From Candidatus Magasanikiibacteriota bacterium (GTDB lineage Bacteria; Patescibacteriota; Patescibacteriia; Magasanikbacterales; GWA2-37-8): a stretch of 64,000 bases of DNA. The notes under the pieces were generated by a model, which saw nothing but the letters and a program-made list of their open reading frames with translations, ran no database searches and was not told where the DNA came from. The DNA is taken from positions 66,061-130,060 of the forward strand of contig JACOYB010000005.1 of NCBI GenBank assembly GCA_016182085.1, read 5' to 3'. This document shows positions 7,221-30,317 of this stretch, piece after piece (positions within the stretch are counted from its first letter, which is position 1; every line of letters starts with the position of its first letter). Both the position numbers and the translations under genes were made by a program.

Positions 7221-7345
7221 AAACAATATTTAGAAATTGTTATAAATAAATACTTCCGAAGAGCCTTTGGACAAGACAAGCAAAGCCCCAAGCATTATAG
7301 CGAGCAGCATGCCAAATAATATATTTTTTGCCATGTCCTTAGAAA

Positions 7346-8062
7346 TCATAATTCGCTTGATTCTCCGGCGGTTACGGGCACCGACAGGCCGCTTAAATAT
7401 TTCGCTTTATCGGATATTAAAAATAATACTACTTCGGCAACTTCTTCGGGCGCTACCAAATGTTTCATTGGATTTTTTTCAACCAAAAAATCATCCATAC
7501 GGCCCGGAATATCTTTATTAAGCTTTGTTCTCATAAAACCCGGAGCAACCGCATGTACGCGCACGCCATGAACGAGAAGCTCGTGGTTCATTTGTCGCAA
7601 CACGCCCCGCAAAGCATATTTAGCCGCGACATATCCGCCCATTTTACCAGATGTGTAATTTGGCTCAGTTACGGCTGAGGTAACTCCGATAACCGCGCCA
7701 TGTTTTTGATTTTTCATAACTTGGCCAATTTCTTTCAGCACATTAAAGCCGCCAAAAACCAACGTCTCAAAATCTTCCCGGAATTCTTCGGCGGATAAAT
7801 CCAGCATATGTTGGCGCTTGATTTCCGAGGTAGCAGTGTAAATACAGGCATCAATATTGTTAAACTTTTCAATAATTTGTCTTATGGCTTCTTGTACTTG
7901 CGCCATGTCTCTAATATCACACTTAAAAAATACATATTCTGAATTGGCATCAAAACTTCTGGATATAATCGCTACCGCGTATCCTTGCCCGGCTAATTTT
8001 TTTGCCACAGCCTTGCCGACATCGCCATATCCGCAAACTATAGCTACTTTAGGATTTTTCAT
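7346..8062 (-). CDS. Short-chain dehydrogenase/reductase (3-oxoacyl-ACP reductase-like)
   Basis: N-terminal GxGxxG-like Rossmann segment VAIVCGYGDVGKAVAKKL. SDR YxxxK region (YVAAKYAL). 238 aa. Confidence 0.85.
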   Translation of the reverse strand: MKNPKVAIVCGYGDVGKAVAKKLAGQGYAVAIISRSFDANSEYVFFKCDIRDMAQVQEAIRQIIEKFNNIDACIYTATSEIKRQHMLDLSAEEFREDFETLVFGGFNVLKEIGQVMKNQKHGAVIGVTSAVTEPNYTSGKMGGYVAAKYALRGVLRQMNHELLVHGVRVHAVAPGFMRTKLNKDIPGRMDDFLVEKNPMKHLVAPEEVAEVVLFLISDKAKYLSGLSVPVTAGESSEL

Positions 8063-8066
8063 ATGA

Positions 8067-8715: not shown

Positions 8716-8883
8716 AATTAAAATAGCGTATAAATAAATGGGGCGAGCGGCGATGTCTGCGCAAACACAAGCAAAGTCGCGAACAAGAACAAGATAATTA
8801 TAATTGGCGCTAACCACCACTTTTTTCTTATTTTAAGAAAACTCCACATTTGTTTAAGCAACCTGAGTGTGTCGTTCATATTA

Positions 8884-10614: not shown

Positions 10615-10615
10615 A

Positions 10616-10948
10616 TTATTCCACTATAGCTACAGCCGCCGCGTGAGTATCGCTGTGGCTTAAACTTACCTGAGCCGTGAATTTACGTAGCTTTTCATTT
10701 AAAAACACAACTGTTGGCTTTAGACCGTCTTTTTTAATTTCAAAATCATGCATTGAAACTGGCAAGGGCATGGCTTTGATCACAGCTTCTTTGGCGGCAA
10801 ATCTTGAAGATATATAGGCAAATTTATCGGTTTTTTCTTCTAAAACTTTCATTTCCTCCGGCAAAAATACAAACTCTAAAAAACGGCTTAAACTAGCTAT
10901 TTTTTTAAACCGCTCAACCTCCACAATATCTATACCAATACCTTGCAT
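10616..10948 (-). CDS. acpS: Holo-ACP synthase (4'-phosphopantetheinyl transferase, AcpS type)
   Basis: MQGIGIDIVEVERF is the AcpS N-terminus. 110 aa. Confidence 0.85.
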   Translation of the reverse strand: MQGIGIDIVEVERFKKIASLSRFLEFVFLPEEMKVLEEKTDKFAYISSRFAAKEAVIKAMPLPVSMHDFEIKKDGLKPTVVFLNEKLRKFTAQVSLSHSDTHAAAVAIVE

Positions 10949-10985
10949 ACTATACTATAAAAATAAAGCTAAAAATAGCCGTTAT

Positions 10986-12167
10986 TTATATAAATATAGC
11001 AAAAATCTTCTGATAAAGCAACAACGAATCGCTGAGGCTGGAAGTGACAAAAAATGGCCAACCCAAGGTAACAAACCCGAATGTTACAATCACTCCGAAT
11101 CCGTATTTAAGCCATCCTGGCAAAAACTTGGGATTAAATGAGAAAACCTTGGTCTGCAAAATAGCCAGGCCCAAACCATGATATAGGCCGAAGAAAAGAA
11201 AATTCCAAGACGAACCATGCCATAAACCAATAAGTCCCATCGTAAATATCACGGCTATAGAAGTAATAAATTTGCTATTACGAAACCGAAAAACGAGCGG
11301 CATATAGATATAGTCGCGTATCCAGCTCGTGAGCGACATATGCCAGTATTTCCAAAAGCCAGCGAGATCTTTACGCAAATACGGCCAAGAAAAATTTATT
11401 GGCACCGTAATGCCAAATAGCAAGGCGCTGCCAATAGCTATATTACTTAATCCCGCAAAATCAAAATAAATACGGAATGAGTAAAAGAATAGACCGCTTA
11501 ACACCGCCAAACTGCTTGGCGCAATATTTGGCGAAGATAAAAATGTTGTTTGTTCTACCAAATTATCGGCGATAAAATATTTTTGCGCGTAACCCAGCAG
11601 GATAAAAAATATACCGGTAATAAATATATTTTTGGAAAATGACTGATCGTGAGTTGACTCAAAAAATTTATTAAACCGTTTGATTGGACCGCTGGCGAGC
11701 GTAGGAAAAAATAAAGCAAATGAAAAAAAATCCGCGAGCGTGTGTTTAGGCAATCGCCCATAGTACATTTCAACTAAATAATGGATAAATTCAAATGTAA
11801 AAAAAGAGATGCCGAGAGGTAAAAAAATCTTGCTTATTTCCCAATTACCTCCCATAAGATCCTTGGCCGTACTGACAAGTAAATTGCTATATTTAAAAAA
11901 TATTAAAACCAAAACTATCACTACTATCCCCTGCCATAAGTGTTTCTTTTTTTGTGTTTTATTTTCTACTTCTTGCATTCTTTTCCCTATCCAATAAGTA
12001 AACGCCGACAGAAGCAAAACTAAAGCTAAAAATTTCAAGCCGTTAAACCCATAAAATACGGCTGACGAAAAAAGAAGCGACGATAAACGCCATTTTTTTG
12101 GAGTTAGCCAAAATAAAGTTACGGCCCCAACCAAGAAAAACGGATAAATAAATGTGTTAAAAAGCAT
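10986..12167 (-). CDS. MBOAT family membrane-bound O-acyltransferase (DltB/AlgI-like)
   Basis: Polytopic membrane protein. WHGSSWNFLFFGLYHG contains the MBOAT catalytic His. N-terminus MLFNTF. Confidence 0.85.
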   Translation of the reverse strand: MLFNTFIYPFFLVGAVTLFWLTPKKWRLSSLLFSSAVFYGFNGLKFLALVLLLSAFTYWIGKRMQEVENKTQKKKHLWQGIVVIVLVLIFFKYSNLLVSTAKDLMGGNWEISKIFLPLGISFFTFEFIHYLVEMYYGRLPKHTLADFFSFALFFPTLASGPIKRFNKFFESTHDQSFSKNIFITGIFFILLGYAQKYFIADNLVEQTTFLSSPNIAPSSLAVLSGLFFYSFRIYFDFAGLSNIAIGSALLFGITVPINFSWPYLRKDLAGFWKYWHMSLTSWIRDYIYMPLVFRFRNSKFITSIAVIFTMGLIGLWHGSSWNFLFFGLYHGLGLAILQTKVFSFNPKFLPGWLKYGFGVIVTFGFVTLGWPFFVTSSLSDSLLLYQKIFAIFI

Positions 12168-12168
12168 A

Positions 12169-13311: not shown

Positions 13312-14476
13312 TAAACTTGGCTAATTCTTCCGAAACTACAATATGTCCTTTTTCAGAAAAATGATGAATGCCGGAGTTATACATTTCATTATGATTTAAA
13401 ACTTGCCGTTCTAACGATCCGCGCAAATTAAGCACCGCCGCACCCGGATTCAAGCCCTCGATTAATTTATTCTCCATGCCGACTGGATTAAACACATAGT
13501 CCTTTAATTTGGGATGGTTATTTTTAAACGCGTTTAACAAATCTTGATTGACTGTTTTACCCTCCGGTATAAGCATCACAATTAATTTCACTCCGTCTTT
13601 TTCTAATTCATTTCTAAAATTATTTATAAGTTCAGAACTAAACGCCGCATGCTTAGCCCTCTCGCTATCTAGCGGATCTAAATAATAATAGTCCCAGTGA
13701 GGTAAATTCAAGCCGGCCTCATCTACCGGCACTGGCGGTCGGAAAAGGCCTAATGTGACAGCTAAATTATTTAAAACCGGCAACGTGCGCACCGCTTTAT
13801 CCATAAATCGAACGATCGCAAGCTTTCGATAAATTTTATCCTTTAGCGCTAAAAAGTCTTTGCCTTTTACAGCCCCATACTGCGGCACCGCATCCCAATC
13901 TGCCGTGCTCGAAGAGAGTAATTTTTCTCTATCTTCAAAATAATAGCCATTGTCGCTAATGTCATTGCCGAGATAAAAACTTAATACCACAACATCAGGA
14001 TGATACTGGCTTGCATATTTGCTGTAATATTTCATTTCATCGGCTGTACCCATGCCTCCAATGCCAAAATTTAATACCTCGGCGGATTTATATGAAGAAC
14101 TGGGATTAGAAGCAAGCGAACTTTGCAAATTATTTTTTAATAAATAAACATAGGTTTTTTCATAATCAATCTGAATGCCCTGCGCGAAAGAATCGCCAAG
14201 TACCGCCACTCTCAAGGCACCCTCGTTTTTTTCCTTTATAAATTCTTCGCCCACAAATCCAAGACTGTTAGTTTTTACATGCACTTTTCTTTTTACTTCC
14301 CCGTCATAACGGCCCCGATCAACATTAGTTTTATGGGTTACAAATCCATCTTCATTAATCCGAGTTAACATATCAAAATCAGTTGGATCAAACATTCTCA
14401 AAAAAAACTCTATGCCTATAAGCGATAGTAAAAGCGCAATTACCAAAGTTAAAATATTTTTTTTAGCCTCTGTCAT
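13295..14476 (-). CDS. SGNH/GDSL-type hydrolase or acyltransferase, membrane anchored
   Basis: N-terminal TM helix. RVAVLGDSFAQG has a GDS block I motif. 393 aa. Confidence 0.6.
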   Translation of the reverse strand: MTEAKKNILTLVIALLLSLIGIEFFLRMFDPTDFDMLTRINEDGFVTHKTNVDRGRYDGEVKRKVHVKTNSLGFVGEEFIKEKNEGALRVAVLGDSFAQGIQIDYEKTYVYLLKNNLQSSLASNPSSSYKSAEVLNFGIGGMGTADEMKYYSKYASQYHPDVVVLSFYLGNDISDNGYYFEDREKLLSSSTADWDAVPQYGAVKGKDFLALKDKIYRKLAIVRFMDKAVRTLPVLNNLAVTLGLFRPPVPVDEAGLNLPHWDYYYLDPLDSERAKHAAFSSELINNFRNELEKDGVKLIVMLIPEGKTVNQDLLNAFKNNHPKLKDYVFNPVGMENKLIEGLNPGAAVLNLRGSLERQVLNHNEMYNSGIHHFSEKGHIVVSEELAKFIVSLP

Positions 14477-14484
14477 ACTTATTT

Positions 14485-16287
14485 TTAATCCAATTTAAAC
14501 TTGCCCAAATATTTGTTCATTTTTTCTTTATCAACGAGCTGCTGGTTATCCTGTTTGGATATAATATAATTTCCCATAACTAAATAATCCATAAATGTAT
14601 GGAGGAACGTATTAAACGCGTCTTGAGGCGACATAACAATCGGCTCACCCCTTACATTAAAGGAAGTGTTAATAATAATCGGACAGCCGGTTTTCTTATA
14701 GAAAGCCTCTATTAAATCATAATACTTTTTATTTTGTTCAGGATTCACTGTTTGCACGCGCGCCGAATTATCAACATGAGTAATTGCCGGCACATCGGTT
14801 CTTTTTACGGGCGCGACCAGGAGCATGTACGGACTAGGCACGGTCAAATCAAAACACTCGGCGCTTTTATCTTCCAAAACGGTAGGGGCAAACGGCCTAA
14901 AACTTTCTCTAAATTTGATCTTTAAATTAACTTTCTGCCAATTCTCTTTATTTCTCGCGTCGGCAATGATAGACCGATTTCCCAAAGAGCGAGGGCCATA
15001 CTCCATTCTGCCTTGAAACCAGCCAATCACATTATTGCCATTTATCAAATTTGAAACTTGATCTATAAGATCATTATATTCTAATCGCTTATAAACTAGC
15101 TTTTTATCTTCTCCAATAATAGCCTTAACATCTTCTTCTAAGAATTTCTCAAGCTCGCTTTCAGAATATTCCGGTCCCAAATAAACGGTCTCCATGGTAC
15201 TGCCTTCCGGCAAAGGATAATTTTTATTTAACCTGTCAAAATAAACATACAAAGCTGCGCCTACAGCTCCGCCGGCATCGCCCGCAGCTGGCTGAATATA
15301 AATATTATCAAACCATTTTTTTTCTAAAATTTTTCCATTGGTTACGCAATTTAAAGCCACGCCTCCGGCTAAGCAAAGATTTTTGTACGGATATAGCGTG
15401 CGAGCTTGCGCAATAATTTTTAAAACAATTTCATTGGTAATTTTTTGCAAAGCGGCGGCAATATCTTTTTCTCTTTGAGTTAGCGGCGATTCAGGCTGGC
15501 GCGCGGGGCCGCCAAACAACTTATCAAATCTTCTGTTTGTCATGCGAAGTCCGTACTCGTAAGAAAAATATTTCATGTTAAGCTTAACGCTGCCATCATC
15601 TCTGATCTCAACAAGTTCTTTAAACGTATCATAATATTTATTTGGATCTCCATACGGAGCCAGGCCCATAACTTTATACTCGGCGCTGTTTACCTTAAAA
15701 CCTAAATAATACGTAAGCGCGGAATAAAACAAGCCTAAGGAATGAGGGAACTCCAGAGTGTGAGAAAGGTTGAGTTTATTGCCTTTTCCATAACCAAACG
15801 TGGTAGTATCAAATTCCCCGACTCCATCCATAGTTACCACAATCGCTTCGCTAAAACCGGAACAAAAATAAGCGCTGGCCGCGTGCGAATAATGATGCTG
15901 GGTAAATAATATGCTGCCCTTGTAACCGTCTAAAGCTTTTCTAATCCTACTCTCTACCCATAGTTTAGTTTTTAAAAATACAAGCATCGCCTTGAGGAAT
16001 GATAAAAACCCTAAAGGCCAAGTGCTAATATACGTCTTAAGCAAACGTTCAAATTTTATGAAGGGTTTTTCATAAAAAACCACATAGCTTAACTGATCGC
16101 TTGTAATGCCGGCAAAATCTAGGCAATATTTAATTGAATGCGCGGGTAGCGAAGAATCCTGCTTATCGCGGGTAAATCTTTCCTCTTGCACAGCCGCCAC
16201 TACTTTGCCATTTTTTATCAGCGCCGCGGCGGCATCGTGATAATCAAATGATAGGCCTAAAATATAAATATCTTGTTCTGACGACAT
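14485..16287 (-). CDS. Carbamoyltransferase (NodU/CmcH family)
   Basis: N-terminal YILGLSFDYHDAAAALIKNGKVVAAVQEERFTR (ASKHA/Kae1-like) and a C-terminal YrdC-like region, typical of O-carbamoyltransferases. Start set at the Met of MSSEQDIY. Confidence 0.8.
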   Translation of the reverse strand: MSSEQDIYILGLSFDYHDAAAALIKNGKVVAAVQEERFTRDKQDSSLPAHSIKYCLDFAGITSDQLSYVVFYEKPFIKFERLLKTYISTWPLGFLSFLKAMLVFLKTKLWVESRIRKALDGYKGSILFTQHHYSHAASAYFCSGFSEAIVVTMDGVGEFDTTTFGYGKGNKLNLSHTLEFPHSLGLFYSALTYYLGFKVNSAEYKVMGLAPYGDPNKYYDTFKELVEIRDDGSVKLNMKYFSYEYGLRMTNRRFDKLFGGPARQPESPLTQREKDIAAALQKITNEIVLKIIAQARTLYPYKNLCLAGGVALNCVTNGKILEKKWFDNIYIQPAAGDAGGAVGAALYVYFDRLNKNYPLPEGSTMETVYLGPEYSESELEKFLEEDVKAIIGEDKKLVYKRLEYNDLIDQVSNLINGNNVIGWFQGRMEYGPRSLGNRSIIADARNKENWQKVNLKIKFRESFRPFAPTVLEDKSAECFDLTVPSPYMLLVAPVKRTDVPAITHVDNSARVQTVNPEQNKKYYDLIEAFYKKTGCPIIINTSFNVRGEPIVMSPQDAFNTFLHTFMDYLVMGNYIISKQDNQQLVDKEKMNKYLGKFKLD

Positions 16288-16295
16288 ATGCAATA

Positions 16296-16526
16296 TTAAA
16301 ACTGATAGGTTAAATCTTCTATACCCTCGCCTGTTTCTTCCTTTGCATGCCAATATGATTCCGGCCTAACTTCCTTTGAAAAAAGTTTAATGACTTTTTG
16401 CACAATTGCGTATAAGCCAATAATAATAAAATAAAAGGCAAATAAAATAACAAACCCGTTGATCGTGGCTAAAACATGGGCGAACTTCATCCAGTACTTA
16501 TATACTATTTTAAAAAACTTTTTCAT
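16296..16526 (-). CDS. Small membrane protein (hypothetical)
   Basis: 76 aa ORF with one strongly hydrophobic helix (GFVILFAFYFIIIGLYAIV). It sits between genes on the same strand and fits once the carbamoyltransferase start is trimmed. Confidence 0.35.
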   Translation of the reverse strand: MKKFFKIVYKYWMKFAHVLATINGFVILFAFYFIIIGLYAIVQKVIKLFSKEVRPESYWHAKEETGEGIEDLTYQF

Positions 16527-21493: not shown

Positions 21494-22294
21494 TTATTGC
21501 CCTTCGGTGCTGACAAAATCATTATAGCGGCTATGCTTAAAGAAATGGCCGATCCAAATCTTATTAAACCAAGGCTGAATAACTTTGTTTTCTAAAAAGT
21601 GATACGGAATCCCTAGTTTTATATTTTCATGAGATTGGTTAAATTCGCAAATAGCCAATCGCTCACCAATAAAATCATTATAAAGTTCTATCTCCGTGCC
21701 TAAAACATCGTCAAAATAACAAAAAAAACGGGGTAAATAATACTTTTCATCAGCCTCCAGCATTTTTAGAGCCACAACTGTTGAAGAATAAAAATCAAAA
21801 TCATACGATACGGCGGCAATCGGCGCGGGATTATACTTTTCAAAAAATTCCTTGGATGTGTCTTTTATATCCCCCAGTATCAATTTAGCTTTTTTCAACT
21901 TCGCCTGCAATCCGGGCACATCCATTTTATAAAAACCTTTTTTCCAATGATACGGCAAGTCGCGATAATCAACCGGTTCTGGCAAACCTTCGCCTGTATC
22001 AAAACCGTAGATATCAATTTCTACGCCAAATATTTTATAGGCTTCTTCCGCATGATATTCAAGGTTTAACAAACCATTTCCTTTAGCTACCCCAAACTCT
22101 AAAACACTTATTCTTTTATAGCCTAATTTTTTCGCTAACGCGGCCGCATTATAAACGCAATAACCATATTCCGGCCGATCTACCGCGCCTAATTTTAAAC
22201 GATCCTCATAAGCGCCAAACTTTTTGACGATCTGCTTGGCAAGAGTGCGCAGCGGATAGGGATCAAAAATTAAATCTTTAATTTTGTTTAACAT
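21494..22294 (-). CDS. Putative SAM-dependent O-methyltransferase (TylF/MycF-like fold)
   Basis: VLEFGVAKGNG is a glycine-rich SAM-binding loop. Its length and position beside the FkbM methyltransferase support the call; the assignment rests on motif only. Confidence 0.4.
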   Translation of the reverse strand: MLNKIKDLIFDPYPLRTLAKQIVKKFGAYEDRLKLGAVDRPEYGYCVYNAAALAKKLGYKRISVLEFGVAKGNGLLNLEYHAEEAYKIFGVEIDIYGFDTGEGLPEPVDYRDLPYHWKKGFYKMDVPGLQAKLKKAKLILGDIKDTSKEFFEKYNPAPIAAVSYDFDFYSSTVVALKMLEADEKYYLPRFFCYFDDVLGTEIELYNDFIGERLAICEFNQSHENIKLGIPYHFLENKVIQPWFNKIWIGHFFKHSRYNDFVSTEGQ

Positions 22295-22325
22295 ACATTT
22301 TTAATGAGTACAGTGGATTAAATTA

Positions 22326-23273
22326 TTATTCACAATAAAAATCCGGTTCTGCTTTTTGTAAAAGTTTAATTGTATAATCAGATCTAATTGATTGAATCAC
22401 AGCCGGCAGCCTTTCTTTGTCCGTTGGCTTGTGATAAGCCGAAAGCGCTAACACCGGCTTATCTCTAATAATTACTTTTTTCGCTCCAAGCAAAACATTC
22501 TCTTCATATCCTTCAACGTCCAATTTGATAAATCCAACTTTTTCCTCTCCGACAAAATCATCAAGCTTTATCACTTCTACCAACTGAGAGTTAGTCGCGT
22601 TTGTTGTGGCGCAAATTGTGGCTGACGAATCTCCAGCTTCAGAAAAGTTAATACTTACCTGTTCATTTTTATCTCCTAAAGCTTTATTTACAGGGATAAC
22701 TTTTCCTTCCAGATTATTTAACTTTATTTGTTTTTTTAAAATTTCAAAAGTAGATGTAATGGGCTCAAAGGCATATACCTTCGCCGCTCCAAGCCGGGCG
22801 CAAAAAATAGCAAACTCTCCCAAATTTGATCCACCGTCTATAACCACCTTATCCCTTATATTATCCTGCGAAAGATTATACTGATTTATTAAAACTGCCT
22901 TTGCATATTCGTCCAATATTCTAAAAATACTTAAAAAGGAATCCTTTTCTTCAAAATCAGCTTCTAAAATAATATTTTTACCCTTATCTGCCAATCTAAA
23001 ATGATGGCGCGGAGCTTTTGTATCCAAAAAGGATGTAATTATTTTCTGATACACCAAGCTTGATACTTCCGACTCTCCTTTGCGCAGCTGCAAGCCCAGT
23101 CTGCATTTTATATAAAAAAGCAAAAGTTTTATCAAAACTCCATGTTTTATCGCCACTTTTAATCTTTCTACTGGGGAAAACAGGATTTCTGTAAATCTAT
23201 CTGCCTGCTTGCCATCTAACCAAAATTCTATCTCTTCGTACGAGCCAAAACTCGCCAATGCTTTATGCGCCAT
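22326..23273 (-). CDS. FkbM family methyltransferase
   Basis: VIDGGSNLGEFAIFCARLGAAKVYAFEP matches the FkbM-domain DxGANxG-like motif. Confidence 0.75.
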   Translation of the reverse strand: MAHKALASFGSYEEIEFWLDGKQADRFTEILFSPVERLKVAIKHGVLIKLLLFYIKCRLGLQLRKGESEVSSLVYQKIITSFLDTKAPRHHFRLADKGKNIILEADFEEKDSFLSIFRILDEYAKAVLINQYNLSQDNIRDKVVIDGGSNLGEFAIFCARLGAAKVYAFEPITSTFEILKKQIKLNNLEGKVIPVNKALGDKNEQVSINFSEAGDSSATICATTNATNSQLVEVIKLDDFVGEEKVGFIKLDVEGYEENVLLGAKKVIIRDKPVLALSAYHKPTDKERLPAVIQSIRSDYTIKLLQKAEPDFYCE

Positions 23274-23385
23274 ATTTTAACTAAGATAAATAAAATTATA
23301 GCTAATTTATTAAGGAGGACTGCATTACTCTATAATAATTAGGGCTTATGATACCACACCGACTATACAAGTCAACTAAAATACG

Positions 23386-23414
23386 TTGACCGAGAAAAAT
23401 TTTTATACTATGAT
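23386..23414 (+). promoter_or_regulatory. Sigma70-like promoter TTGACC-17-TATGAT upstream of the MBOAT gene (near-leaderless transcript)
   Basis: TTGACC at 23386-23391, 17-nt spacer, TATGAT at 23409-23414. The ATG is at 23426. Confidence 0.35.
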
Positions 23415-23425
23415 AGCAATCAAGA

Positions 23426-24922
23426 TTGATAATTCTTACTAAAATGTTATTCAATTCGTTTAGTTTTTTAATTTTCTTCCCGATCGTTACGATCGTTTAC
23501 TTTGTACTCCCCCATCGTTTTCGTTGGTTTTGGCTGCTGCTGGCCAGCTCATACTTTTACATGAGCTTTGTGCCGATTTATATTTTAATACTCGCCTTTA
23601 CCATCATTGTTGATTATGGCGCCGGTTTAATTATTGAACACACGGAAAACAAAACAAGAAAAAGGGTTCTTTTGATTATAAGTTTGCTCGCCAACATAGG
23701 CATATTATCAATTTTTAAATACGCCAACTTTGGCATCAGCAACATAAACGCGCTCGCCCAGATAATAAACTGGAACTATTCCATAAACCTTTTAACAATT
23801 CTCCTGCCCATCGGACTTTCATTTCACACCTTCCAAAGCTTAAGCTACGTCATAGAAGTTTACCGCGGCAATCAAAAAGCGGAAAAAAATTTAGGCATAT
23901 TTGCCTTATACGTAATGTTCTACCCGCAGCTGGTGGCTGGCCCCATAGAACGTCCGCAGCATTTGCTGCATCAATTCAGAGAAAAGCACGATCTTGATTA
24001 TGAAAAAATCGTCTCTGGCCTTAAATTGATGGCCGTTGGTTTTTTTAAAAAAATGGTAGTCGCCGATCGATTGGCAGAGTTTGTAAATCCCGTATACAAC
24101 AATGCTCACAGCTACTCCGGCTGGCCTCTTATTATAACTACCATATTTTTTGCTTTTCAAATTTATTACGATTTTTCCGGGTATTCCGATATCGCGCGAG
24201 GCGCAGCCAAAATAATGGGGTTTGATTTAATGGTAAATTTTAATAATCCCTATAAATCAAAAACGATCGCGGAATTTTGGAAACGATGGCATATTTCGCT
24301 ATCTTCGTGGTTTAAAGACTATGTCTATATACCTTTGGGAGGCAGCCGAGTAAATAAATTGCGATTCAGCTTTAATATTATGGTAGTTTTTTTATTAAGC
24401 GGCTTATGGCATGGCGCTAATTGGACGTATATTTTATGGGGCGGCCTAAACGGCTTATACCTGATAATTGCCCGCTTTACAGAAAATATACGAACTAAGC
24501 TGGCTAATTTATTATTTAAGGATGATTGGAAAACCATGCAGAGTTTCATGCAGATTGGCACTGCTTTTATTTTAATTTGTTTTTCATGGATACTATTTAG
24601 AGCTCAAAGCATAAGTGACGCTTGGTATATTTTTAAAAATCTCTTGGCCGATAAAAATCTTTTAACCGGACTTATAAACCCCGTTTATATTAAACAGCAC
24701 ATTATGCTTGGCCGCGGGTTTTTAAACTTTACCGTTGTTATTGTGTTTATATTTTTAATAGAATGGGCTCATATCTACGCGGAGAAAAAAAATATTCCTA
24801 TTGAACAGGCTTTGGAAAATAAAAAGTGGTATTATAGATGGTCGGTATATTATTTTCTAATCATAGCTATTGCGGTATTTGGAATTCTAACCCCAACAAA
24901 TTTTATCTATTTTCAATTTTAA
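23426..24922 (+). CDS. MBOAT family membrane-bound O-acyltransferase (AlgI/DltB-like), second copy
   Basis: WHISLSSWFKDYVYIPLGG and LSGLWHGANWTYILWG are MBOAT His motifs. 498 aa polytopic. Confidence 0.85.
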   Translation: MIILTKMLFNSFSFLIFFPIVTIVYFVLPHRFRWFWLLLASSYFYMSFVPIYILILAFTIIVDYGAGLIIEHTENKTRKRVLLIISLLANIGILSIFKYANFGISNINALAQIINWNYSINLLTILLPIGLSFHTFQSLSYVIEVYRGNQKAEKNLGIFALYVMFYPQLVAGPIERPQHLLHQFREKHDLDYEKIVSGLKLMAVGFFKKMVVADRLAEFVNPVYNNAHSYSGWPLIITTIFFAFQIYYDFSGYSDIARGAAKIMGFDLMVNFNNPYKSKTIAEFWKRWHISLSSWFKDYVYIPLGGSRVNKLRFSFNIMVVFLLSGLWHGANWTYILWGGLNGLYLIIARFTENIRTKLANLLFKDDWKTMQSFMQIGTAFILICFSWILFRAQSISDAWYIFKNLLADKNLLTGLINPVYIKQHIMLGRGFLNFTVVIVFIFLIEWAHIYAEKKNIPIEQALENKKWYYRWSVYYFLIIAIAVFGILTPTNFIYFQF

Positions 24923-24937
24923 GAAAGCGGCCCGCTT

Positions 24938-26011
24938 ATGCGCAAACTACTCTTAAAACTCGCTCTATTTCTACCGCTGCTCTTAAGCCTGCTTATCATC
25001 CAACGCCTGGCTTATTCAAGCACTCTGTTTAATACTGCCGAAGCTGTGATTTCAAAAGCCTGGCTCAATGAGGAAAACATTGCTTTTACTTTTGATTACG
25101 ACGATCGCGTAACTCATAAATATTACATTAAAAATAATAACCGGAAAAAAGACGTCATTATTTTTGGATCGAGCCGATCGGCAAAAATTAATAATAATTT
25201 TTTTCCAAAAAAATCTTTTTTTAATCATAATGTTACGGGGGCAGAACTTGAAGATTACATAAGCATCTACCAGCTTTATCGCGCCAAAAAAAACATGCCG
25301 GCCACGGTAGTGTTTGGCCTTGATCCTTGGATACTAGATAGCAAAAATGGCAAGCCAAAACGATGGCTAGATTTGCATAAAGAATTTTATGAGTTAGCCG
25401 GCGCTTTCCCTTTTCCTCGCGATCCAAAAATAGCCCTGTGGTACTTAGGCGAACGATTAAAAGCGCCGTTTTCCATCCCCCATTTTCAATATTCTATTAA
25501 AAAAATAGCTCAAAATATACTGCTGGGGCGCGATCATTCTAAATACTACGCTACCAGCGACATTGAAGGATTTCTACCTATTGTTCATGCCGATGGCAGT
25601 ATTGCCGACAGTCTTAAAATAAGATCTAAGAGTTCAGAGCAGGTGGCCTTAGAAATTCAAGCCCTGCCAAGCAAATGCCCAACTGTTTTAAAAAATACTC
25701 TCAGCAAAGAAAAACAGTTCTTATTCATAAATTTTCTAAAAATTCTAAAAGAAGACAATGTTAAAATAATTTTTTTACTCCCCCCTTTTCACCCGCTTGC
25801 CTATAACGAAATCACTTCTAACCCCCAGTGTCATTTATCTATAGAAGCTGAAACATACTTTAGAGATATTGCCCAAGAAAATAATATCCAAATACTTGGC
25901 TCATATAACCCAAATATATACAGCCTGCAAGATGCTTATTTTTACGATTCCATTCATCCAAAACAAGCGGCTTTGGAAGTTATTTTTAAAAAAGAAGGGC
26001 TGATAAAATAA
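24938..26011 (+). CDS. DltD/AlgJ-like secreted or membrane-anchored partner protein
   Basis: Signal/anchor MRKLLLKLALFLPLLLSLLII. DVIIFGSSRSAKI is an SGNH-like block. Immediately downstream of the MBOAT. Confidence 0.5.
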   Translation: MRKLLLKLALFLPLLLSLLIIQRLAYSSTLFNTAEAVISKAWLNEENIAFTFDYDDRVTHKYYIKNNNRKKDVIIFGSSRSAKINNNFFPKKSFFNHNVTGAELEDYISIYQLYRAKKNMPATVVFGLDPWILDSKNGKPKRWLDLHKEFYELAGAFPFPRDPKIALWYLGERLKAPFSIPHFQYSIKKIAQNILLGRDHSKYYATSDIEGFLPIVHADGSIADSLKIRSKSSEQVALEIQALPSKCPTVLKNTLSKEKQFLFINFLKILKEDNVKIIFLLPPFHPLAYNEITSNPQCHLSIEAETYFRDIAQENNIQILGSYNPNIYSLQDAYFYDSIHPKQAALEVIFKKEGLIK

Positions 26012-26100
26012 CCCATTTTAAACATTTTAATTTAATTAGTCGTAATTGACAAAAAATTAAAGGATTGTTAAACTAAACCCAAATAAAATATTTAAATCCT

Positions 26101-27039
26101 ATGAAAATTTTGATAACTGGAGGCGCCGGCTATATCGGTTCATGTCTTATTCCCGAGCTACTCAACGCCGGCCATCAAGTGCGCGTTTTGGACAGTTTGT
26201 TATTTGGGCAAACTTCCCTGCTCCCCTATTTTATAAATAAAAATTTTGAATTTATTAAAGGAGATATTAGAAATGTTGAGTTAGTGCAAAAAGCTGTAAA
26301 CAACATGGATGTAATTATCCATCTTGCGGCTATTGTTGGAGCCCCGGCTTGCAAAAAAGATCCAAAGGTAGCTGAAGAAGTTAATTTTGTAGGCACAGTC
26401 AATGTTAATAACGCGCGAGATGTTTCACAAAAATTATTCTACGCTTCAACGGGCAGTGTCTATGGAAAGGTAGAAGATATTTGCAAAGAAGATTTGCCTG
26501 CCAAACCGCTGTCTAGTTATGGAGAAACCAAACTGCGCGCGGAACAAGAAGTGATGCGCAAGGGAAACGCCATTGCCTATAGATTTGCCACGGCTTTTGG
26601 CTTATCCTCGCGTCTGCGCTTAGATCTCATGCCGAATGATTTTGTATTCAACGCTTTGAAAAATAAATACCTCGTAGTATACGATAAGGGTTTTAAACGA
26701 ACATTTATTCATGTGAGGGACATTGTTTCGGCCTACATGTTTGGCATAAATAATTTTGAAAACATGAAAAATGAAGTCTACAATATTGGCTCTGAAAAAA
26801 TGAATAAAACCAAAGAAGACGTGGCTAATATGATTAGAGAAAAATTGAATTTTGAGATCTTGTTTGTAGATAAGGGCATCCCAGATCCAGACCAAAGAGA
26901 TTATGCCGTTTCATACGAAAAAATTCGCAGCAAAGGTTTTGACACTAAAATTTCATTTGAAGAAGCAATTGACGAGCTGATCTTAGGCCTGCAAACAGTA
27001 CACATCGCCAACCCTTACTCCAACATGTCTTCTTACTAA
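26101..27039 (+). CDS. NAD-dependent sugar-nucleotide epimerase/dehydratase
   Basis: MKILITGGAGYIGSCL Rossmann motif. Extended SDR. Confidence 0.85.
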   Translation: MKILITGGAGYIGSCLIPELLNAGHQVRVLDSLLFGQTSLLPYFINKNFEFIKGDIRNVELVQKAVNNMDVIIHLAAIVGAPACKKDPKVAEEVNFVGTVNVNNARDVSQKLFYASTGSVYGKVEDICKEDLPAKPLSSYGETKLRAEQEVMRKGNAIAYRFATAFGLSSRLRLDLMPNDFVFNALKNKYLVVYDKGFKRTFIHVRDIVSAYMFGINNFENMKNEVYNIGSEKMNKTKEDVANMIREKLNFEILFVDKGIPDPDQRDYAVSYEKIRSKGFDTKISFEEAIDELILGLQTVHIANPYSNMSSY

Positions 27040-27047
27040 AAGCGCTT

Positions 27048-27980
27048 ATGAAGCTAAAGATTTTAGTTCTGGGCGGCAGCGGGTTTGTCGGTCAACATCT
27101 GACCAAAGCTTTACAAAAAACCGAACATGAAATTTTTTCCGCTTCCCGCATAGACGGTCTTGACTTAAGAGATTATACAAATACCGCCGCATATTTTGGC
27201 AACATAAAGCCTGACGTTATTTTTAATTGCGCTGCTCATGTTGGCAGCGTGCATTATGTAACTACCTACGCAGCCGATGTTATCACTGATAACTTACAAA
27301 TGTCTTTAAATATTTATAAGGCGGCCGCAGAGGTTTGTCCGCAAGCGAAGATAGTAAATCTTCTTTCAAATTGCTCATACCCGGGCGCAGCTGACATTCA
27401 AATAGAATCAGAATGGTGGAACGGACCGGTTCATGAGTCGGTTTTTTCTTACGGAAATTCCAAAAAAGCGCTCTATATGATCGCCAAATGTTATGCCAAA
27501 CAACATAATATAAAAAGCGTTAATTTTTTAGTGCCTAACACATTTGGCCCGGGCGACTCTACGGACCCAAATAAAACTCACGCGCTTAACGGAATGCTCA
27601 TTCGCATGATTGAAGCTCAGAAAAAAGGAGATACCCAGTTTGAAATTTGGGGTACGGGCAGTCCGGTGCGAGAATGGGCTTATATTGATGATGTGGTAAG
27701 TATTTTAGTTAAAAGCATGGATATAACAGAGGATCTGTTAGAGCCGGTCAATCTCGCCCAAAACAAAGGCTACACGATCAAAGAATCGGCGCAATTTATC
27801 GCCGAAGCCTTGGGATTTGAGGGCGAGCTTGTATTTAATACTAAATATGCCGATGGCGCGCCGGTAAAAATTCTAGATGATAAAAAATTCAGATCCATGT
27901 TTCCGGATTTTGTTTTCGCCAATCATAAAGAAGGCATCAAAAAAACCGCTCTCTACTATCAATCAAAATTACAGGGGTAA
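27048..27980 (+). CDS. NAD(P)-dependent epimerase/reductase (GDP-L-fucose synthase-like)
   Basis: KILVLGGSGFVGQHL. About 310 aa, Fcl-like size. Confidence 0.7.
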   Translation: MKLKILVLGGSGFVGQHLTKALQKTEHEIFSASRIDGLDLRDYTNTAAYFGNIKPDVIFNCAAHVGSVHYVTTYAADVITDNLQMSLNIYKAAAEVCPQAKIVNLLSNCSYPGAADIQIESEWWNGPVHESVFSYGNSKKALYMIAKCYAKQHNIKSVNFLVPNTFGPGDSTDPNKTHALNGMLIRMIEAQKKGDTQFEIWGTGSPVREWAYIDDVVSILVKSMDITEDLLEPVNLAQNKGYTIKESAQFIAEALGFEGELVFNTKYADGAPVKILDDKKFRSMFPDFVFANHKEGIKKTALYYQSKLQG

Positions 27981-27981
27981 T

Positions 27982-28758
27982 ATGGCCGCAGCAAATGCTC
28001 TTATCGGCTATACTGGATTTGTCGGAGGAAATATTTTAGACCAAAAATCGTTTGATTTTTTGTACAACTCTAAAAATATTGAAACGATTGCGGGCAAAAA
28101 ATTTGACGTGGTAGTCTGCGCTGGCGTACCAGCCGTAAAATGGCTGGCAAACAAAGAGCCCGAAAATGATCGCGCTATTATTAAAAAGTTAACTGATAAT
28201 CTAGAAAAAATAGAAGCCAAAAAATTCATCCTAATTTCTACAGTTGACGTCTATCCAGCTACTAAAAAAATAAATGAAGATTGTGTTATTGACACGCAAA
28301 TCTTGCAGCCTTACGGCAAACATAGACGACAGCTTGAGGAATTTATCTCGCAGCGTTTTGATTCCCTCATTGTCCGATTACCCGGACTATTTGGAAGAGG
28401 ATTGAAAAAAAATCCTTTATTTGACTTGATGCAGGGAAATTTTACTTATATTCATCCCGAAAACACTCTCCAGTTTTATAACCTGGCCTATATATGGAAA
28501 GATATCAATAAATCACTGGAAAATAATCTAAAAGTTGTAAACTTTGTTACGGAACCGGTAGCGCTTAAAGTGCGCGCCGAAAAAACTTTAAAAACCCATT
28601 TGCCGGATAACCCCGCTCCTCCCACTCAATCATACGATATCTCCACCAAACATGCGGCGCTATGGGGAAATACCAACTCTTACCTATACTCCAAAAAACA
28701 AGTCCTAGAAGACATCAAAACATTTATCAGCTCATATAATAAATCACAGACTGGATAA
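27982..28758 (+). CDS. NAD(P)-dependent sugar-nucleotide reductase/epimerase family protein
   Basis: ALIGYTGFVGGNIL Rossmann motif. Start set at the internal Met 2 nt after the upstream stop. Confidence 0.7.
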   Translation: MAAANALIGYTGFVGGNILDQKSFDFLYNSKNIETIAGKKFDVVVCAGVPAVKWLANKEPENDRAIIKKLTDNLEKIEAKKFILISTVDVYPATKKINEDCVIDTQILQPYGKHRRQLEEFISQRFDSLIVRLPGLFGRGLKKNPLFDLMQGNFTYIHPENTLQFYNLAYIWKDINKSLENNLKVVNFVTEPVALKVRAEKTLKTHLPDNPAPPTQSYDISTKHAALWGNTNSYLYSKKQVLEDIKTFISSYNKSQTG

Positions 28759-28780
28759 ACAGTCTGTGATTTATTATATA
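28743..28780. terminator. Bidirectional rho-independent terminator between convergent genes
   Basis: Perfect 11-bp inverted repeat ATCACAGACTG/CAGTCTGTGAT with loop GATAAA, overlapping the stop codon. T-rich tract follows. Confidence 0.6.
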
Positions 28781-28805
28781 TTACTTTTTCTCAAAACTTC
28801 CACCC

Positions 28806-30317
28806 TTATTGATTTTTATTTTCAATATTTGAATCATAAGCAAGCTTTCGCCATTTAAATAACTGCACTAACGGATACACCCAAACAGTTAAAACAATCA
28901 TATATTGGAACCATAATTCAGAGGGCGCGTCCGTGCCGCGCAAAACATGATTATATATCCAAGGAATATAAAAGGATAAAAGCGGCACAATACTGAGCCA
29001 GATTAAAATCTTTTTAAGGAAAATGGATGGCGACAAATAAAGATAGATTAAACCAAACGGTAAAAGCCAAGATATATACCATGGCCAAAATGATTTTTGC
29101 CAAATCGCTAAATAAATGAGCATGCTGATAAAAATCGCGCCCACATACTGGGCTGGCTGCCACTGCGTCCGCTTAAGCAAAACCAAGACAGCTTTCTTAA
29201 ATAATGGATAAATAAAATACAGAGCCAAAAGAAATACGGCTGCATGCAAGGCTCTCGTTAATATCCAATGGGCTTTTTCCGTAAATAATTGTACAAATAA
29301 TGGCTTTAACGAATAATAAGAAGCGGAAAAAATACTGCTGACCGCCCATTTAGTTTGTAATAGAATTGGCTTAAGTATCTGCGGGCCTTGCCAGAAGGGG
29401 TTCCATAGCAAATAGGTCATGAGGATACCGGCCATGATGCCCACAGCCGCTTGGCTCAAGTTTTGTTTCCAATTGGACATATTTGTATCTTGCCACCACC
29501 ACAAGGCAAACCAGGGAGCCATAAGCAAGGGGATAAATTTAACCCAGATTCCTACAACCAGCAATATAATCACCAACCACCAATATTTTTTAATTGCCGC
29601 GAGGATTGCCAGCAGTACAAATACAACCCACAACACATCAAATTGCCCATTCCCCAGCCACTGCCAGACAATCATTGGCTGAACGCACCACCAAAGATAA
29701 AAATTCAATTTTTCAAATTTAGCATTAGAAAGCAATTGTATAATTTTCCAACTCACCAAAGCTGAAACAAATAAACCTAACAGGAGCAACAGCTTCCACA
29801 CTAAGACAAAAGCCAGAAAATTTCCTTGACTCAAGTTAAATACCAAAGTAAAAAAACCAAGCGTTATTGGACCATACATTATACCGTTTAAATTCGTCCC
29901 TTTAGGTTCGCAGGCATACATGTTAGCCATATACCAATCCTGGGCAAATACATTCGTACCCTGGCTCAAGGCCTTACCCGCGCTAAAGTAAAAACTTATA
30001 TCATGCGTGTTTAATGATGGCATCAGTATTGCAGCGAGCAGTAACAATCCTCCAACCGCATACAGCCATTTTTTATGTGTAACAGTTGCTACAGCCGCTT
30101 CGGAATGGATGAGTGTATAAGCAAAAAAAGCGCTTACAGCTAAGGAAGCGATAAATAACGGATAAAATAATAATGACCAGGGTATCCCGGCCAAATTTAA
30201 GCGGCCCAAAAAATTACAGTTTGCGCCGAAATTTATATAAGATACAATGGACCAAACTAAAACTACCAGCCATCCGATAATTCCCGCGCCTATGATTACT
30301 TTAGGTTTTGTAATCAT
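28806..30317 (-). CDS. Polytopic membrane protein, putative GT-C-type glycosyltransferase or polymerase
   Basis: 503 aa, about 14 predicted TM helices, W-rich loops. No soluble catalytic domain. Located within the glycan locus. Confidence 0.45.
   Translation of the reverse strand: MITKPKVIIGAGIIGWLVVLVWSIVSYINFGANCNFLGRLNLAGIPWSLLFYPLFIASLAVSAFFAYTLIHSEAAVATVTHKKWLYAVGGLLLLAAILMPSLNTHDISFYFSAGKALSQGTNVFAQDWYMANMYACEPKGTNLNGIMYGPITLGFFTLVFNLSQGNFLAFVLVWKLLLLLGLFVSALVSWKIIQLLSNAKFEKLNFYLWWCVQPMIVWQWLGNGQFDVLWVVFVLLAILAAIKKYWWLVIILLVVGIWVKFIPLLMAPWFALWWWQDTNMSNWKQNLSQAAVGIMAGILMTYLLWNPFWQGPQILKPILLQTKWAVSSIFSASYYSLKPLFVQLFTEKAHWILTRALHAAVFLLALYFIYPLFKKAVLVLLKRTQWQPAQYVGAIFISMLIYLAIWQKSFWPWYISWLLPFGLIYLYLSPSIFLKKILIWLSIVPLLSFYIPWIYNHVLRGTDAPSELWFQYMIVLTVWVYPLVQLFKWRKLAYDSNIENKNQ

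Follow-up and report, generated by a model that had tools for sequence, protein, structure and literature searches.

Among the described bacterial systems that combine a membrane-bound O-acyltransferase (MBOAT) with an SGNH protein, PatA/PatB of Campylobacter jejuni and Neisseria gonorrhoeae consists of two genes, one for the MBOAT and one for a membrane-anchored SGNH protein (PMC12148441). PatA auto-acetylates the tyrosine of an FxYxxF motif from acetyl-CoA; the same work defined this motif and its role as an acyl shuttle, and described the extra C-terminal hairpin of fused-shuttle MBOATs, which is absent in DltB (PMC12148441). According to its authors, MBOATs with a fused motif lack carrier proteins because acyl-CoA is their donor, and the MBOAT pathways other than Dlt are stated to lack DltX-like microproteins (PMC12148441). 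The DltB residues of helix HC, on which the carrier DltC docks, are taken here from PMC11035591. On the SGNH side, the Gly of block II is replaced by Ser or Asn in transferases (PMC12148441), AlgJ and AlgX are circularly permuted SGNH-like proteins with the block order H-S-G-N (PMC9487903), and DUF1574 belongs to the SGNH clan and has no member with known function or structure (PMC9487903).

The focal gene pair and its genomic setting

The window, that is, the whole 64,000-nucleotide stretch of DNA analysed here, holds two MBOAT systems (Table 1). The initial annotation described the second of them as an MBOAT with a DltD-like partner in divergent transcription, and our analysis agrees: both forward-strand ORFs are present, the product of the first (MBOAT2) matches Pfam MBOAT at 3e-30, the best fold match of the second is DltD, and the pair is separated by a 170-bp spacer from a reverse-strand gene for an FkbM-family methyltransferase. 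Also as described there, the first system lies inside an ACP/PPTase/FkbH module and the second beside methyltransferases. Neither ORF of the focal pair is a product of chance, since the homologs of MBOAT2 number more than 8000, with 53-96% identity to it for the best 120, and a profile search with the partner retrieved 5396 cluster representatives at E<=1e-3. A rare partner family, suggested by the 27 homologs of a word-indexed search, was ruled out by this exhaustive profile search.

Table 1. Coordinates of the two MBOAT systems and neighbouring features in the window.
Feature	Position	Strand	Description
39-aa microprotein MISKDMAKNILFGMLLAIMLGALLVLSKGSSEVFIYNNF	7230..7349	-	DltX-like: one TM helix and C-terminal FxYxxF (FIYNNF)
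ACP	8479-8715	-	PP-binding 2e-7
DUF5989 microprotein	8718-8879	-	ends in FIYTLF; DUF5989 6.7e-22
FkbH-like loader	8884-10614	-	FkbH_N 3.8e-12
4'-phosphopantetheinyl transferase (PPTase)	10616-10948	-	ACPS 1.2e-13
MBOAT1	10986..12167	-	short MBOAT, 393 aa, without C-terminal shuttle; 'MPLVF' at DltC-docking helix position
Membrane-anchored SGNH-like protein	12169-13311	-	'FLGASS' ... 'DEIH'
Membrane-anchored SGNH-like protein, GDSL/AlgX-like	13295-14476	-	
FkbM-family methyltransferase	22326-23273	-	TIGR01444 1.3e-29
Promoter-like TTGACC-17-TATGAT	23386..23414	+	5' of MBOAT2; 10/12 consensus matches; weak evidence
MBOAT2	23444..24922	+	492 aa; MBOAT with fused acyl shuttle; TTG at 23426 as alternative start
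His283 codon, MBOAT2	24290..24292	+	aligns with DltB His289; invariant in 41/41 sequences
His323 codon, MBOAT2	24410..24412	+	aligns with DltB His336; W322-H323-G324 invariant (41 sequences)
Two extra C-terminal TM helices, MBOAT2	24719..24880	+	residues ~426-448 and ~462-479; AF2 secondary structure, hydropathy
FIYFQF and stop, MBOAT2	24902..24922	+	residues 487-492, Tyr489; FxYxxF acyl-shuttle motif
SGNH partner	24938..26011	+	357 aa; N-terminal membrane anchor and extracytoplasmic SGNH-fold domain, DltD-like fold
Membrane anchor, partner	24941-25018	+	residues ~2-27; single N-terminal TM helix
Ser78 codon, partner	25169..25171	+	block I 'GSSRS'; predicted nucleophile; G77 and S78 invariant (n=24 sequences)
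Asp337-x-x-His340, partner	25946..25957	+	block V 'DSIH'; D337 and H340 invariant (n=24 sequences)
Three NAD-dependent epimerase/dehydratase-type genes	26101-27039, 27048-27980, ~27982-28758	+	Pfam Epimerase 1e-35, 3e-40, 5e-5

The ORF for MBOAT2 extends upstream to the TTG at 23426, but translation more probably begins at the ATG at 23444 ('MLFNSFSFL...'), because the resulting 492 aa equal the length of the protein in a 96%-identical locus (L001) and in the GenBank entry MBI2037823.1, where it is named 'MBOAT family protein'. The start codon of the partner follows the MBOAT2 stop after 15 nt. Base 23386, given by the initial annotation as the start of the region, is the first base of the promoter-like TTGACC-17-TATGAT; since the number of such sites in the region does not exceed that in shuffled sequences (14 observed versus 11.3 +/- 3.7), we take it as a mere consensus match. 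An Rfam search of 22000-29000 gave no match, and no significant repeat was found in the divergent spacer.

By Pfam annotation, which covered the majority of ORFs between 96 and 35618 as well as some beyond, the locus is of the Wzx/Wzy heteropolysaccharide type: glycosyltransferases are numerous, and sugar epimerases, a Wzx-like flippase and a Wzy_C protein are also encoded; AlgF and alginate synthesis genes were not found in the same annotation. Three epimerase/dehydratase-type genes follow the pair on the same strand, in an order that is kept in L001; they may modify sugar nucleotides and may be co-transcribed with the pair.

The pair itself is conserved well beyond this locus. In loci located with an alignment of the closer subset of partner relatives, an MBOAT gene lies directly 5' of the partner gene on the same strand in 37 of the 43 non-redundant loci with enough upstream DNA, mostly with a gap of 0-30 nt, and 36 of these 37 MBOATs end in F.Y..F. 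These loci come from many phyla. The pair is found amid glycosyltransferases, a flippase and sugar-modifying genes in the window and in L001, L002 and L004; in L006/L007 it stands outside any glycan cluster amid unrelated genes, and the contexts differ widely between loci. Within +/-6 kb of the homologous pairs in L002, L004 and L006, no PP-binding or ACPS gene was found.

Predicted acyl shuttle and active sites of the pair

The closest solved relative of MBOAT2 is DltB (6BUG; phmmer 2e-29; Foldseek E 4e-14, TM 0.63/0.74), to which its AF2 model (pLDDT 89.9) is also nearest in fold. His323 corresponds to the catalytic His shared by all MBOATs (DltB His336, CjPatA His315). Like PatA, MBOAT2 combines this His with a C-terminal FxYxxF placed after two extra TM helices (PMC12148441), and, with its fused FIYFQF, it is of the long class, like AlgI. 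An ending of the form FIYF[QVR]F is present in all 120 best homologs, F487-F492 is invariant in the alignment, and F.Y..F endings are rare in the window, being carried by only 3 of 1356 stop-to-stop segments. The low pLDDT of the tail in the AF2 model is compatible with a mobile arm. By sequence, predicted fold and gene neighbourhood, the pair shows all the features of the PatA/PatB class that we tested, and MBOAT2 is classified here as a fused-shuttle bacterial MBOAT.

The partner has the canonical residue order Ser78 ... Asp337-x-x-His340, as in PatA/PatB (PMC12148441), where the pair likewise has neither a carrier protein nor a microprotein of its own. Invariant Asn96 lies at the position expected for a block II residue, although this block assignment is inferred. 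In fold comparison, the partner is an SGNH protein with DltD as its best structural match, sharing the N-terminal anchor, the extended SGNH domain and the helical insertions, and the number of aligned residues (229-235) exceeds that for esterases (~160-175). The relation to DltD is visible in fold comparison only: sequence and profile searches of the PDB found no solved relative, DltD chains included, and neither the partner nor any of 23 relatives matched Pfam DltD (PF04914) at E<=1. The partner stays under the Pfam thresholds of all characterised transferase families (DltD, PatB/DUF459, DHHW, AlgX). The sole Pfam family that it matches is DUF1574 (PF07611), with 21.6 bits (E 1.5e-4) against a gathering threshold of 29.1 bits; among 24 aligned relatives, 10 match this family (best E 1.3e-10). 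On these scores, the partner is best described as a protein of a DUF1574-related SGNH family. The label 'AlgI/AlgJ-type', proposed in the initial annotation, does not fit it, because AlgJ and AlgX are permuted and matched by Pfam ALGX, whereas the partner is canonical in order, lacks an ALGX match and resembles DltD most closely in structure.

Putative donor signatures of the two MBOAT systems

MBOAT1 and MBOAT2 share 32% identity over ~345 residues; BLASTP found no MBOAT1 counterpart of MBOAT2 beyond residue ~345, and MBOAT1 ends soon after the common core. No sequence similarity was detected between the partner of MBOAT2 and those of MBOAT1, so that the term 'paralogous', used for both systems in the initial annotation, holds only loosely. 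The Dlt-resembling system of the window is the MBOAT1 block and not the focal pair. In the focal pair, the shuttle is fused to MBOAT2 instead of residing on a DltX microprotein, no DltA or DltC gene is adjacent, and the neighbours are a methyltransferase and epimerases. Both MBOATs remain below the DltB cut-off of TIGR04091 (375 bits), with 159 bits for MBOAT2 and 197 bits for MBOAT1.

The two proteins diverge where DltC docks on DltB. At this position, MBOAT2 has 'IPLGG', MBOAT1 'MPLVF' and DltB 'MRLVI', and the HC residues M302, V305, I306, M309, K312 and R317 of DltB correspond in MBOAT2 to I, G, deleted, deleted, R and R. A pairwise HMMER reading, in which MBOAT1 kept DltB M302/V305/I306 and the deletion was found in MBOAT2 alone, was overturned by the multiple alignment: helix HC is 4 residues shorter in MBOAT2 than in DltB, and it is shorter in MBOAT1 as well. 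The real difference between the two at the docking helix, as aligned, is 'MPLVF' versus the 'IPLGG' of the shortened helix. Across loci, 'MPLVF' is accompanied by ACP modules in 4/4 contexts; the three contexts with short MBOATs carrying 'IxLGG' have no ACP nearby and all have a DltX-like microprotein. By the latter three, the idea that all short MBOATs are carrier-dependent was ruled out.

The initial annotation had proposed the two systems as an internal contrast for donor specificity. MBOAT2, with its fused FxYxxF and 'IPLGG', indeed stands against an MBOAT1 that lacks a shuttle, has 'MPLVF' and whose gene neighbours encode ACP, PPTase and DltX-like microproteins. The two did not fall into one clade with identical carrier-contact residues, as judged from the docking-helix alignment and from a neighbour-joining tree drawn without bootstrap support, with no experimentally characterised AlgI, PatA or WssH references in it; the OatA N-terminal domain, also suggested as a reference in the initial annotation, belongs to the AT3 proteins rather than to the MBOATs (PMC12148441). 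These data support different functional classes for MBOAT1 and MBOAT2, which gives the locus its internal contrast.

Proposed relay and alternative readings

The focal pair is an unexceptional example of an already known type of O-acylation system, and we consider it to be, probably, a self-contained, carrier-independent MBOAT-SGNH cassette, whose most likely role is to O-acetylate the surface polysaccharide (Wzx/Wzy type) of the surrounding locus. The domain identities, motif, invariant residues, folds and conserved gene pairing are observed for the cassette; by comparison with PatA/PatB (PMC12148441), we infer that acetyl-CoA is the donor, that the locus glycan is the acceptor, and that acyl-Tyr and acyl-Ser intermediates connect the two, a Tyr-to-Ser relay logic also known from Dlt. 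MBOAT2 would accept an acyl group, most likely the acetyl of acetyl-CoA, on the cytoplasmic face, and His323, aided by His283, would move it to Tyr489 in the enzyme's own FIYFQF tail. The two extra TM helices would bring this tail to the extracytoplasmic side of the membrane, allowing the acyl-Tyr to enter the active site of the adjacent SGNH protein and to acylate Ser78 of its putative triad Ser78/Asp337/His340, from which the acyl group would be handed to a glycan hydroxyl outside the cytoplasm.

The same relay could serve another donor or another acceptor. As the acyl group is not specified by the sequence and unusual tailoring enzymes abound in the locus (several methyltransferases, a carbamoyltransferase, an AsnB-like enzyme and the FkbH/ACP module), MBOAT2 might draw on an acyl-CoA other than acetyl-CoA, e.g., propionyl-, succinyl- or another short acyl-CoA, and leave a non-acetyl ester. 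However, the fused-motif bacterial MBOATs in the pathways of PMC12148441 are all acetyltransferases (PatA, AlgI, WssH, PatA1, CcsH), and the family with which MBOAT2 shares 53-59% identity is very large, uniform and has the identical FIYFQF ending, which makes such a donor quite unlikely. An acceptor in the form of another envelope polymer, such as peptidoglycan or a lipid-linked glycan of other origin, is unlikely in the window, where the pair is embedded in glycan genes, as it is in L001, L002 and L004, and shares its strand with the three sugar epimerase/dehydratase genes; the widely varying gene contexts speak for it, and the placement of the pair amid unrelated genes in L006/L007 indicates that the acceptor may vary between organisms.

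Readings that change the mechanism are much harder to reconcile with the data. A carrier-dependent MBOAT2 like DltB, fed by the ACP of the MBOAT1 block so that one donor pathway supplies both systems, could point to the FkbH-like loader, ACP and PPTase in the same locus, the latter two at ~12.5-15 kb with some chance of cross-talk, to DltB as the nearest solved structure and to the Arg residues that match DltB K312 and R317. Yet DltB is the sole solved bacterial MBOAT, so that its rank as best match says little, and the ACP and the microproteins, 12.5-16 kb from the focal pair, are in a block that is separately conserved. The focal pair recurs across phyla with an ACP/PPTase nearby in 0/3 Pfam-annotated contexts, the fused shuttle is typical of carrier-independent systems (PMC12148441), and MBOAT2 has the docking-helix sequence 'IPLGG', not the 'MPLVF' that goes with ACP modules in all four contexts and is replaced by 'IxLGG' in the three ACP-free short MBOATs; we give this reading the lowest probability. 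Very improbable, too, is that the SGNH partner acts on O-acyl groups as an Ape1-like esterase, removing or editing them, instead of serving as the terminal transferase: a fused-shuttle MBOAT requires an SGNH acceptor and the cassette has no other SGNH gene, the strict MBOAT-then-partner order with mostly 0-30 nt gaps favours a stoichiometric partner, the TM anchor and the long alignment to DltD are transferase-like (DltD, PatB), and invariant Asn96 at the presumed block II site recalls the Ser/Asn of transferases (PMC12148441).

With the carrier-independent cassette as the preferred reading, the focal pair adds one predicted O-acetylation cassette in a MAG labelled as candidate phyla radiation. 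Its value lies in the within-locus contrast, which offers sequence markers for predicting how bacterial MBOATs are supplied, namely a fused FIYFQF tail versus a separate FxYxxF microprotein, and 'IPLGG' versus the DltB-like 'MPLVF' at the docking helix. The homologs of MBOAT2 carry the automatic annotation 'AlgI'; if the markers hold, finer annotation becomes possible for thousands of genes labelled 'AlgI' or 'MBOAT family protein', and the partner family, with more than 5000 cluster representatives, could be named glycan O-acyltransferase instead of hypothetical protein.

A broader proposal, which in our estimate falls a little short of an even chance, is that both architectures of bacterial transmembrane acyl transfer, fused and split, operate in this one locus and decorate one glycan, each with an acyl group of its own. 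The focal pair would be of the fused-shuttle, acyl-CoA type, thereby giving the DUF1574-related SGNH family a first function as terminal O-acyltransferase, and the MBOAT1 block would represent a carrier-dependent split system distinct from Dlt, with its shuttle provided by the DltX-like microproteins (DUF5989 FIYTLF and 39-aa FIYNNF). If true, microproteins acting as shuttle in the MBOAT1 block would contradict the statement on non-Dlt pathways cited at the outset, and 'MPLVF' versus 'IxLGG' would predict carrier-protein versus acyl-CoA donors family-wide. Both SGNH-like proteins are kept beside MBOAT1 homologs in three loci (L055, L056, L058), which also keep the 39-aa microprotein, and near relatives of this microprotein are encoded directly 3' of short MBOATs in three further loci (L057, L059, L060).

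Genomic setting and gene layout

The segment is chromosomal, with a G+C content of 36-43%; ftsA, ftsZ, a Mur ligase and a pyruvate kinase gene lie at one window end. It carries a large surface-polysaccharide locus (more than 30 kb) encoding GT2 and GT4 glycosyltransferases, a Wzx-like flippase, a Wzy_C/TPR protein, methyltransferases, a carbamoyltransferase, an AsnB-like enzyme and sugar epimerases. The initial annotation had described here a second MBOAT plus DltD-like pair, divergently transcribed and perhaps of AlgI/AlgJ type. Both ORFs are found where it placed them, and GenBank lists identical proteins: MBI2037823.1 ('MBOAT family protein') and MBI2037824.1 ('hypothetical protein HYT15_02735'). 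The MBOAT2 ORF opens at TTG 23426, and the ATG listed in the table gives the product called in both public records, beginning MLFNSF (MBOAT1 begins MLFNTF). The partner ORF starts 15 nt past the MBOAT2 stop. Transcription is indeed divergent from an FkbM-family gene, and the spacer between them contains neither an Rfam match nor a notable repeat. Position 23386, where the initial annotation had the feature start, marks the -35-like hexamer in a promoter-like TTGACC-17-TATGAT, and such matches are no more frequent in the region than in shuffled sequence.

Three epimerase/dehydratase genes follow downstream on the same strand. A mechanically called ORF there runs ~100 nt into the epimerase gene before it; in the related locus L001 the product is annotated with 258 aa, equivalent to a window start at 27982 (MAAANALIGYTG...), which yields the third, divergent NAD-binding epimerase-like gene. 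The source MAG carries the label Candidatus Magasanikbacteria (CPR), and a locus with 94-96% identity (L001/L008) that of 'uncultured Gammaproteobacteria', which makes the taxonomic label of the window uncertain; the assignment of one of these two MAGs is probably wrong.

Features of the two MBOAT systems and their surroundings
Feature	Coordinates	Strand	Remarks
DltX-like microprotein	7230-7349	-	39 aa, ending KGSSEVFIYNNF
Conserved MBOAT1 block	7346-16353	-
ACP of MBOAT1 block	8479-8715		DSL serine
DUF5989 microprotein	8718-8879	-	53 aa, one TM helix, ending APFIYTLF; Pfam 6.7e-22
MBOAT1	10986-12167	-	393 aa
MBOAT1 docking-helix signature	~11283-11297	-	residues ~291-295
SGNH-like protein	12169-13311		membrane-anchored
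SGNH-like protein	13295-14476		membrane-anchored
Other MBOAT1-block genes			4'-phosphopantetheinyl transferase, FkbH-like loader, MaoC dehydratase, SDR
Predicted membrane protein	16296-16526	-	76 aa
FkbM-family methyltransferase	22326-23273	-	divergent from the MBOAT2 pair across a 170-bp spacer
MBOAT2	23444-24922	+	492 aa
MBOAT2 docking-helix signature	24329-24343	+	residues 296-300
Partner SGNH protein	24938-26011	+	357 aa
Mechanical ORF	27877-28758	+

The fused shuttle motif of MBOAT2 and its SGNH partner

MBOAT2 matches the Pfam MBOAT family (3e-30), and its nearest solved protein is DltB, both by sequence (2e-29) and by the fold of the confident AF2 model (pLDDT 89.9; Foldseek E 4e-14, TM 0.63/0.74). 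In alignment, DltB His289 and His336 have their counterparts in His283 and His323, both invariant in the family. Orthology to DltB was rejected (TIGR04091, 159 bits vs a cut-off of 375). The decisive feature is the C-terminus. Beyond helix 363-386, the last one that MBOAT2 has in common with DltB and MBOAT1, the model contains two more long helices (426-448 and 462-479) and a low-confidence tail that ends in FIYFQF, which is the FxYxxF acyl-shuttle motif. All 120 best homologs (53-96% identity, 444-503 aa) terminate in FIYF[QVR]F, and across the whole window F.Y..F terminates only 3 of 1356 stop-to-stop segments that are 25 codons or longer. For PatA, Anderson, Schultz et al. (PMC12148441) established that this Tyr becomes auto-acetylated from acetyl-CoA and that PatB, the SGNH protein, accepts the acetyl from an acetyl-Tyr hexapeptide. 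The Dlt pathway instead has the motif on DltX, a separate microprotein, with DltC, a carrier protein, as donor (PMC12148441).

The partner has a single N-terminal TM helix and a confident AF2 model (pLDDT 89.8). An alignment of 24 relatives reveals invariant G77-S78 (block I, GSSRS), N96, G127-x-D129 and D337-x-x-H340 (block V), that is, the canonical SGNH block order, in contrast to the H-S-G-N permutation by which AlgJ and AlgX are defined (PMC9487903). Neither an ALGX match in the 24 relatives nor an AlgX/AlgJ chain in the top 60 fold matches was found, so the AlgJ label proposed initially does not hold. DltD, DUF459/PatB and DHHW are likewise matched by none of the 24, and no PDB chain is matched by the partner sequence or its profile. 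The only sequence-level family match is DUF1574, an SGNH family without known function or structure (PMC9487903), which the partner hits under the gathering score and 10 of the 24 relatives also match. The family is large: the profile retrieves 5396 cluster representatives at E<=1e-3 (1711 at E<=1e-30), and the small family suggested by 27 word-indexed matches was rejected as a sensitivity artefact.

The pairing is conserved. In four of four look-ups, the gene directly 3' of an MBOAT (440-492 aa), and on its strand, encodes a partner homolog; the surroundings vary from glycan genes in L002 and L004 to an unrelated neighbourhood in L006, and these look-ups show no PP-binding or ACPS gene within +/-6 kb of the pair. 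Scanning a single genome of each species gave 47 loci, from Gammaproteobacteria MAGs, Selenomonadales, Clostridia, Bacteroidota, Margulisbacteria, Nitrospirota, Campylobacterota, Chloroflexota and others. Of these, 43 are non-redundant and include 1300 nt or more of upstream sequence; an MBOAT gene directly precedes the partner gene in 37 of the 43, 36 of these MBOATs end in F.Y..F, and the loci lacking an MBOAT there hold the most distant partner relatives. A Pelagibacteraceae contig (L044, 3894-5921) joins a partner-like domain to an AT3 acyltransferase in one protein, as in OatA; in Thermoflexus (L047, 4725-7403), the gene directly after that of a partner relative encodes an AMP-binding (adenylating) enzyme, and no MBOAT lies near. 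Because of these arrangements, this SGNH family appears to recur as the final module in transmembrane acyl-transfer systems. One Chitinophagales MAG (L019, 958-6074) carries two tandem MBOAT-partner pairs, with MBOATs ending in FFYFQF and FIYFQF.

Carrier docking and a candidate acyl relay

In S. thermophilus DltB, the residues touching DltC are M302, V305, I306 and M309 of helix HC, together with K312 and R317 (PMC11035591). These contacts were compared, as proposed initially for contrasting the two MBOATs: in a 64-sequence alignment, the docking helix of MBOAT1 and MBOAT2 is equally 4 residues shorter than that of DltB, but the sequences differ sharply. MBOAT1's 23 closest relatives carry MP[LI]VF, which keeps the M and V matching DltB M302 and V305, vs I[PTFLS]LGG in every other short MBOAT and in all long ones, MBOAT2 included. 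MPLVF MBOATs lie within an ACPS-FkbH-ACP block in 4/4 contexts (window, L055, L056, L058), vs no ACP near short IxLGG MBOATs (0/3; L057, L059, L060). A core-region NJ tree, crude and midpoint-rooted, without bootstrap support or characterised AlgI/PatA references, sets MBOAT2 and every partner-neighbouring MBOAT on one side and MBOAT1, the short MBOATs and DltB on the other. The earlier reading is partly borne out: it is right on the MBOAT class and the internal contrast, but wrong in labelling the partner AlgJ and in naming OatA as a further reference.

From the observed architecture, motifs, folds, invariant residues and conserved pairing, the best-supported reading is a PatA/PatB-like relay, for which we infer the covalent intermediates, the acceptor and the identity of the acyl group. 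The group transferred, most likely an acetyl taken from acetyl-CoA, would be loaded onto Tyr489 of the mobile MBOAT2 tail with the assistance of His323, pass to Ser78 of the anchored partner and be transferred to a polysaccharide hydroxyl outside the cytoplasm. There are four rival readings: MBOAT2 might use another acyl-CoA, or draw on the ACP that the locus does encode; the partner might act as an esterase; and the acceptor might be a different polymer from that of the surrounding locus. In working logic the pair is of PatA/PatB type, and by fold its two proteins lie nearest DltB and DltD. Since defining features of both the Dlt and the Alg families were tested and are absent, the pair belongs to neither; what is new is a terminal transferase from the uncharacterised, DUF1574-related SGNH family.

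The MBOAT1 block and its microproteins

The pair itself is of modest interest; the MBOAT1 block, outside the flagged region, is the more surprising material, and the potential of the pair would rise if the split-system reading of that block is true. MBOAT1 is 32% identical to MBOAT2 over the common core and scores higher against the PDB DltB chain (139 vs 106 bits) and TIGR04091 (197 vs 159 bits). It ends in ...YQKIFAIFI, without the shuttle motif; among its best 120 homologs, the motif is absent from 115/115 short ones and FIYFQF terminates 5/5 long ones. The block is conserved as a unit in L055, L056 and L058, in the order carbamoyltransferase, SGNH, SGNH, short MBOAT, ACPS, FkbH-like, DUF5989, ACP, MaoC dehydratase, SDR and microprotein, then AsnB-like. 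It has the appearance of a carrier-protein-dependent pathway for placing an unusual acyl group, possibly FkbH-derived (glyceryl or hydroxyacyl), on a glycan.

Both window microproteins keep their positions in the same three loci. The DUF5989 gene has the FkbH-like gene on one side and the ACP gene on the other, and the FIYTLF of its product is an exact FxYxxF, like that of DltX; this ending suggests what a family of unknown function, not mentioned in the literature we searched, may do. Close relatives of the 39-aa microprotein (L057, 10140-10250; L059, ~7164-7274; L060, ~7112-7246) lie directly 3' of short, motif-less IxLGG MBOATs in three of three unrelated loci. Split MBOAT plus microprotein systems therefore appear to exist outside the Dlt pathway, contrary to a 2025 mechanistic paper that reports DltX-like microproteins as absent from non-Dlt MBOAT pathways (PMC12148441). 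The MBOAT1 block itself resembles such a split system, carrier-dependent but not Dlt, with DltX-like microproteins that include DUF5989. Immediately upstream of the carbamoyltransferase lies the 76-aa predicted membrane protein, with counterparts of 73-88 aa in L001, L055, L056 and L058 for which no Pfam match is recorded; the mechanical carbamoyltransferase ORF (TTG 16353) overlaps its gene, and the true start is probably near 16287.
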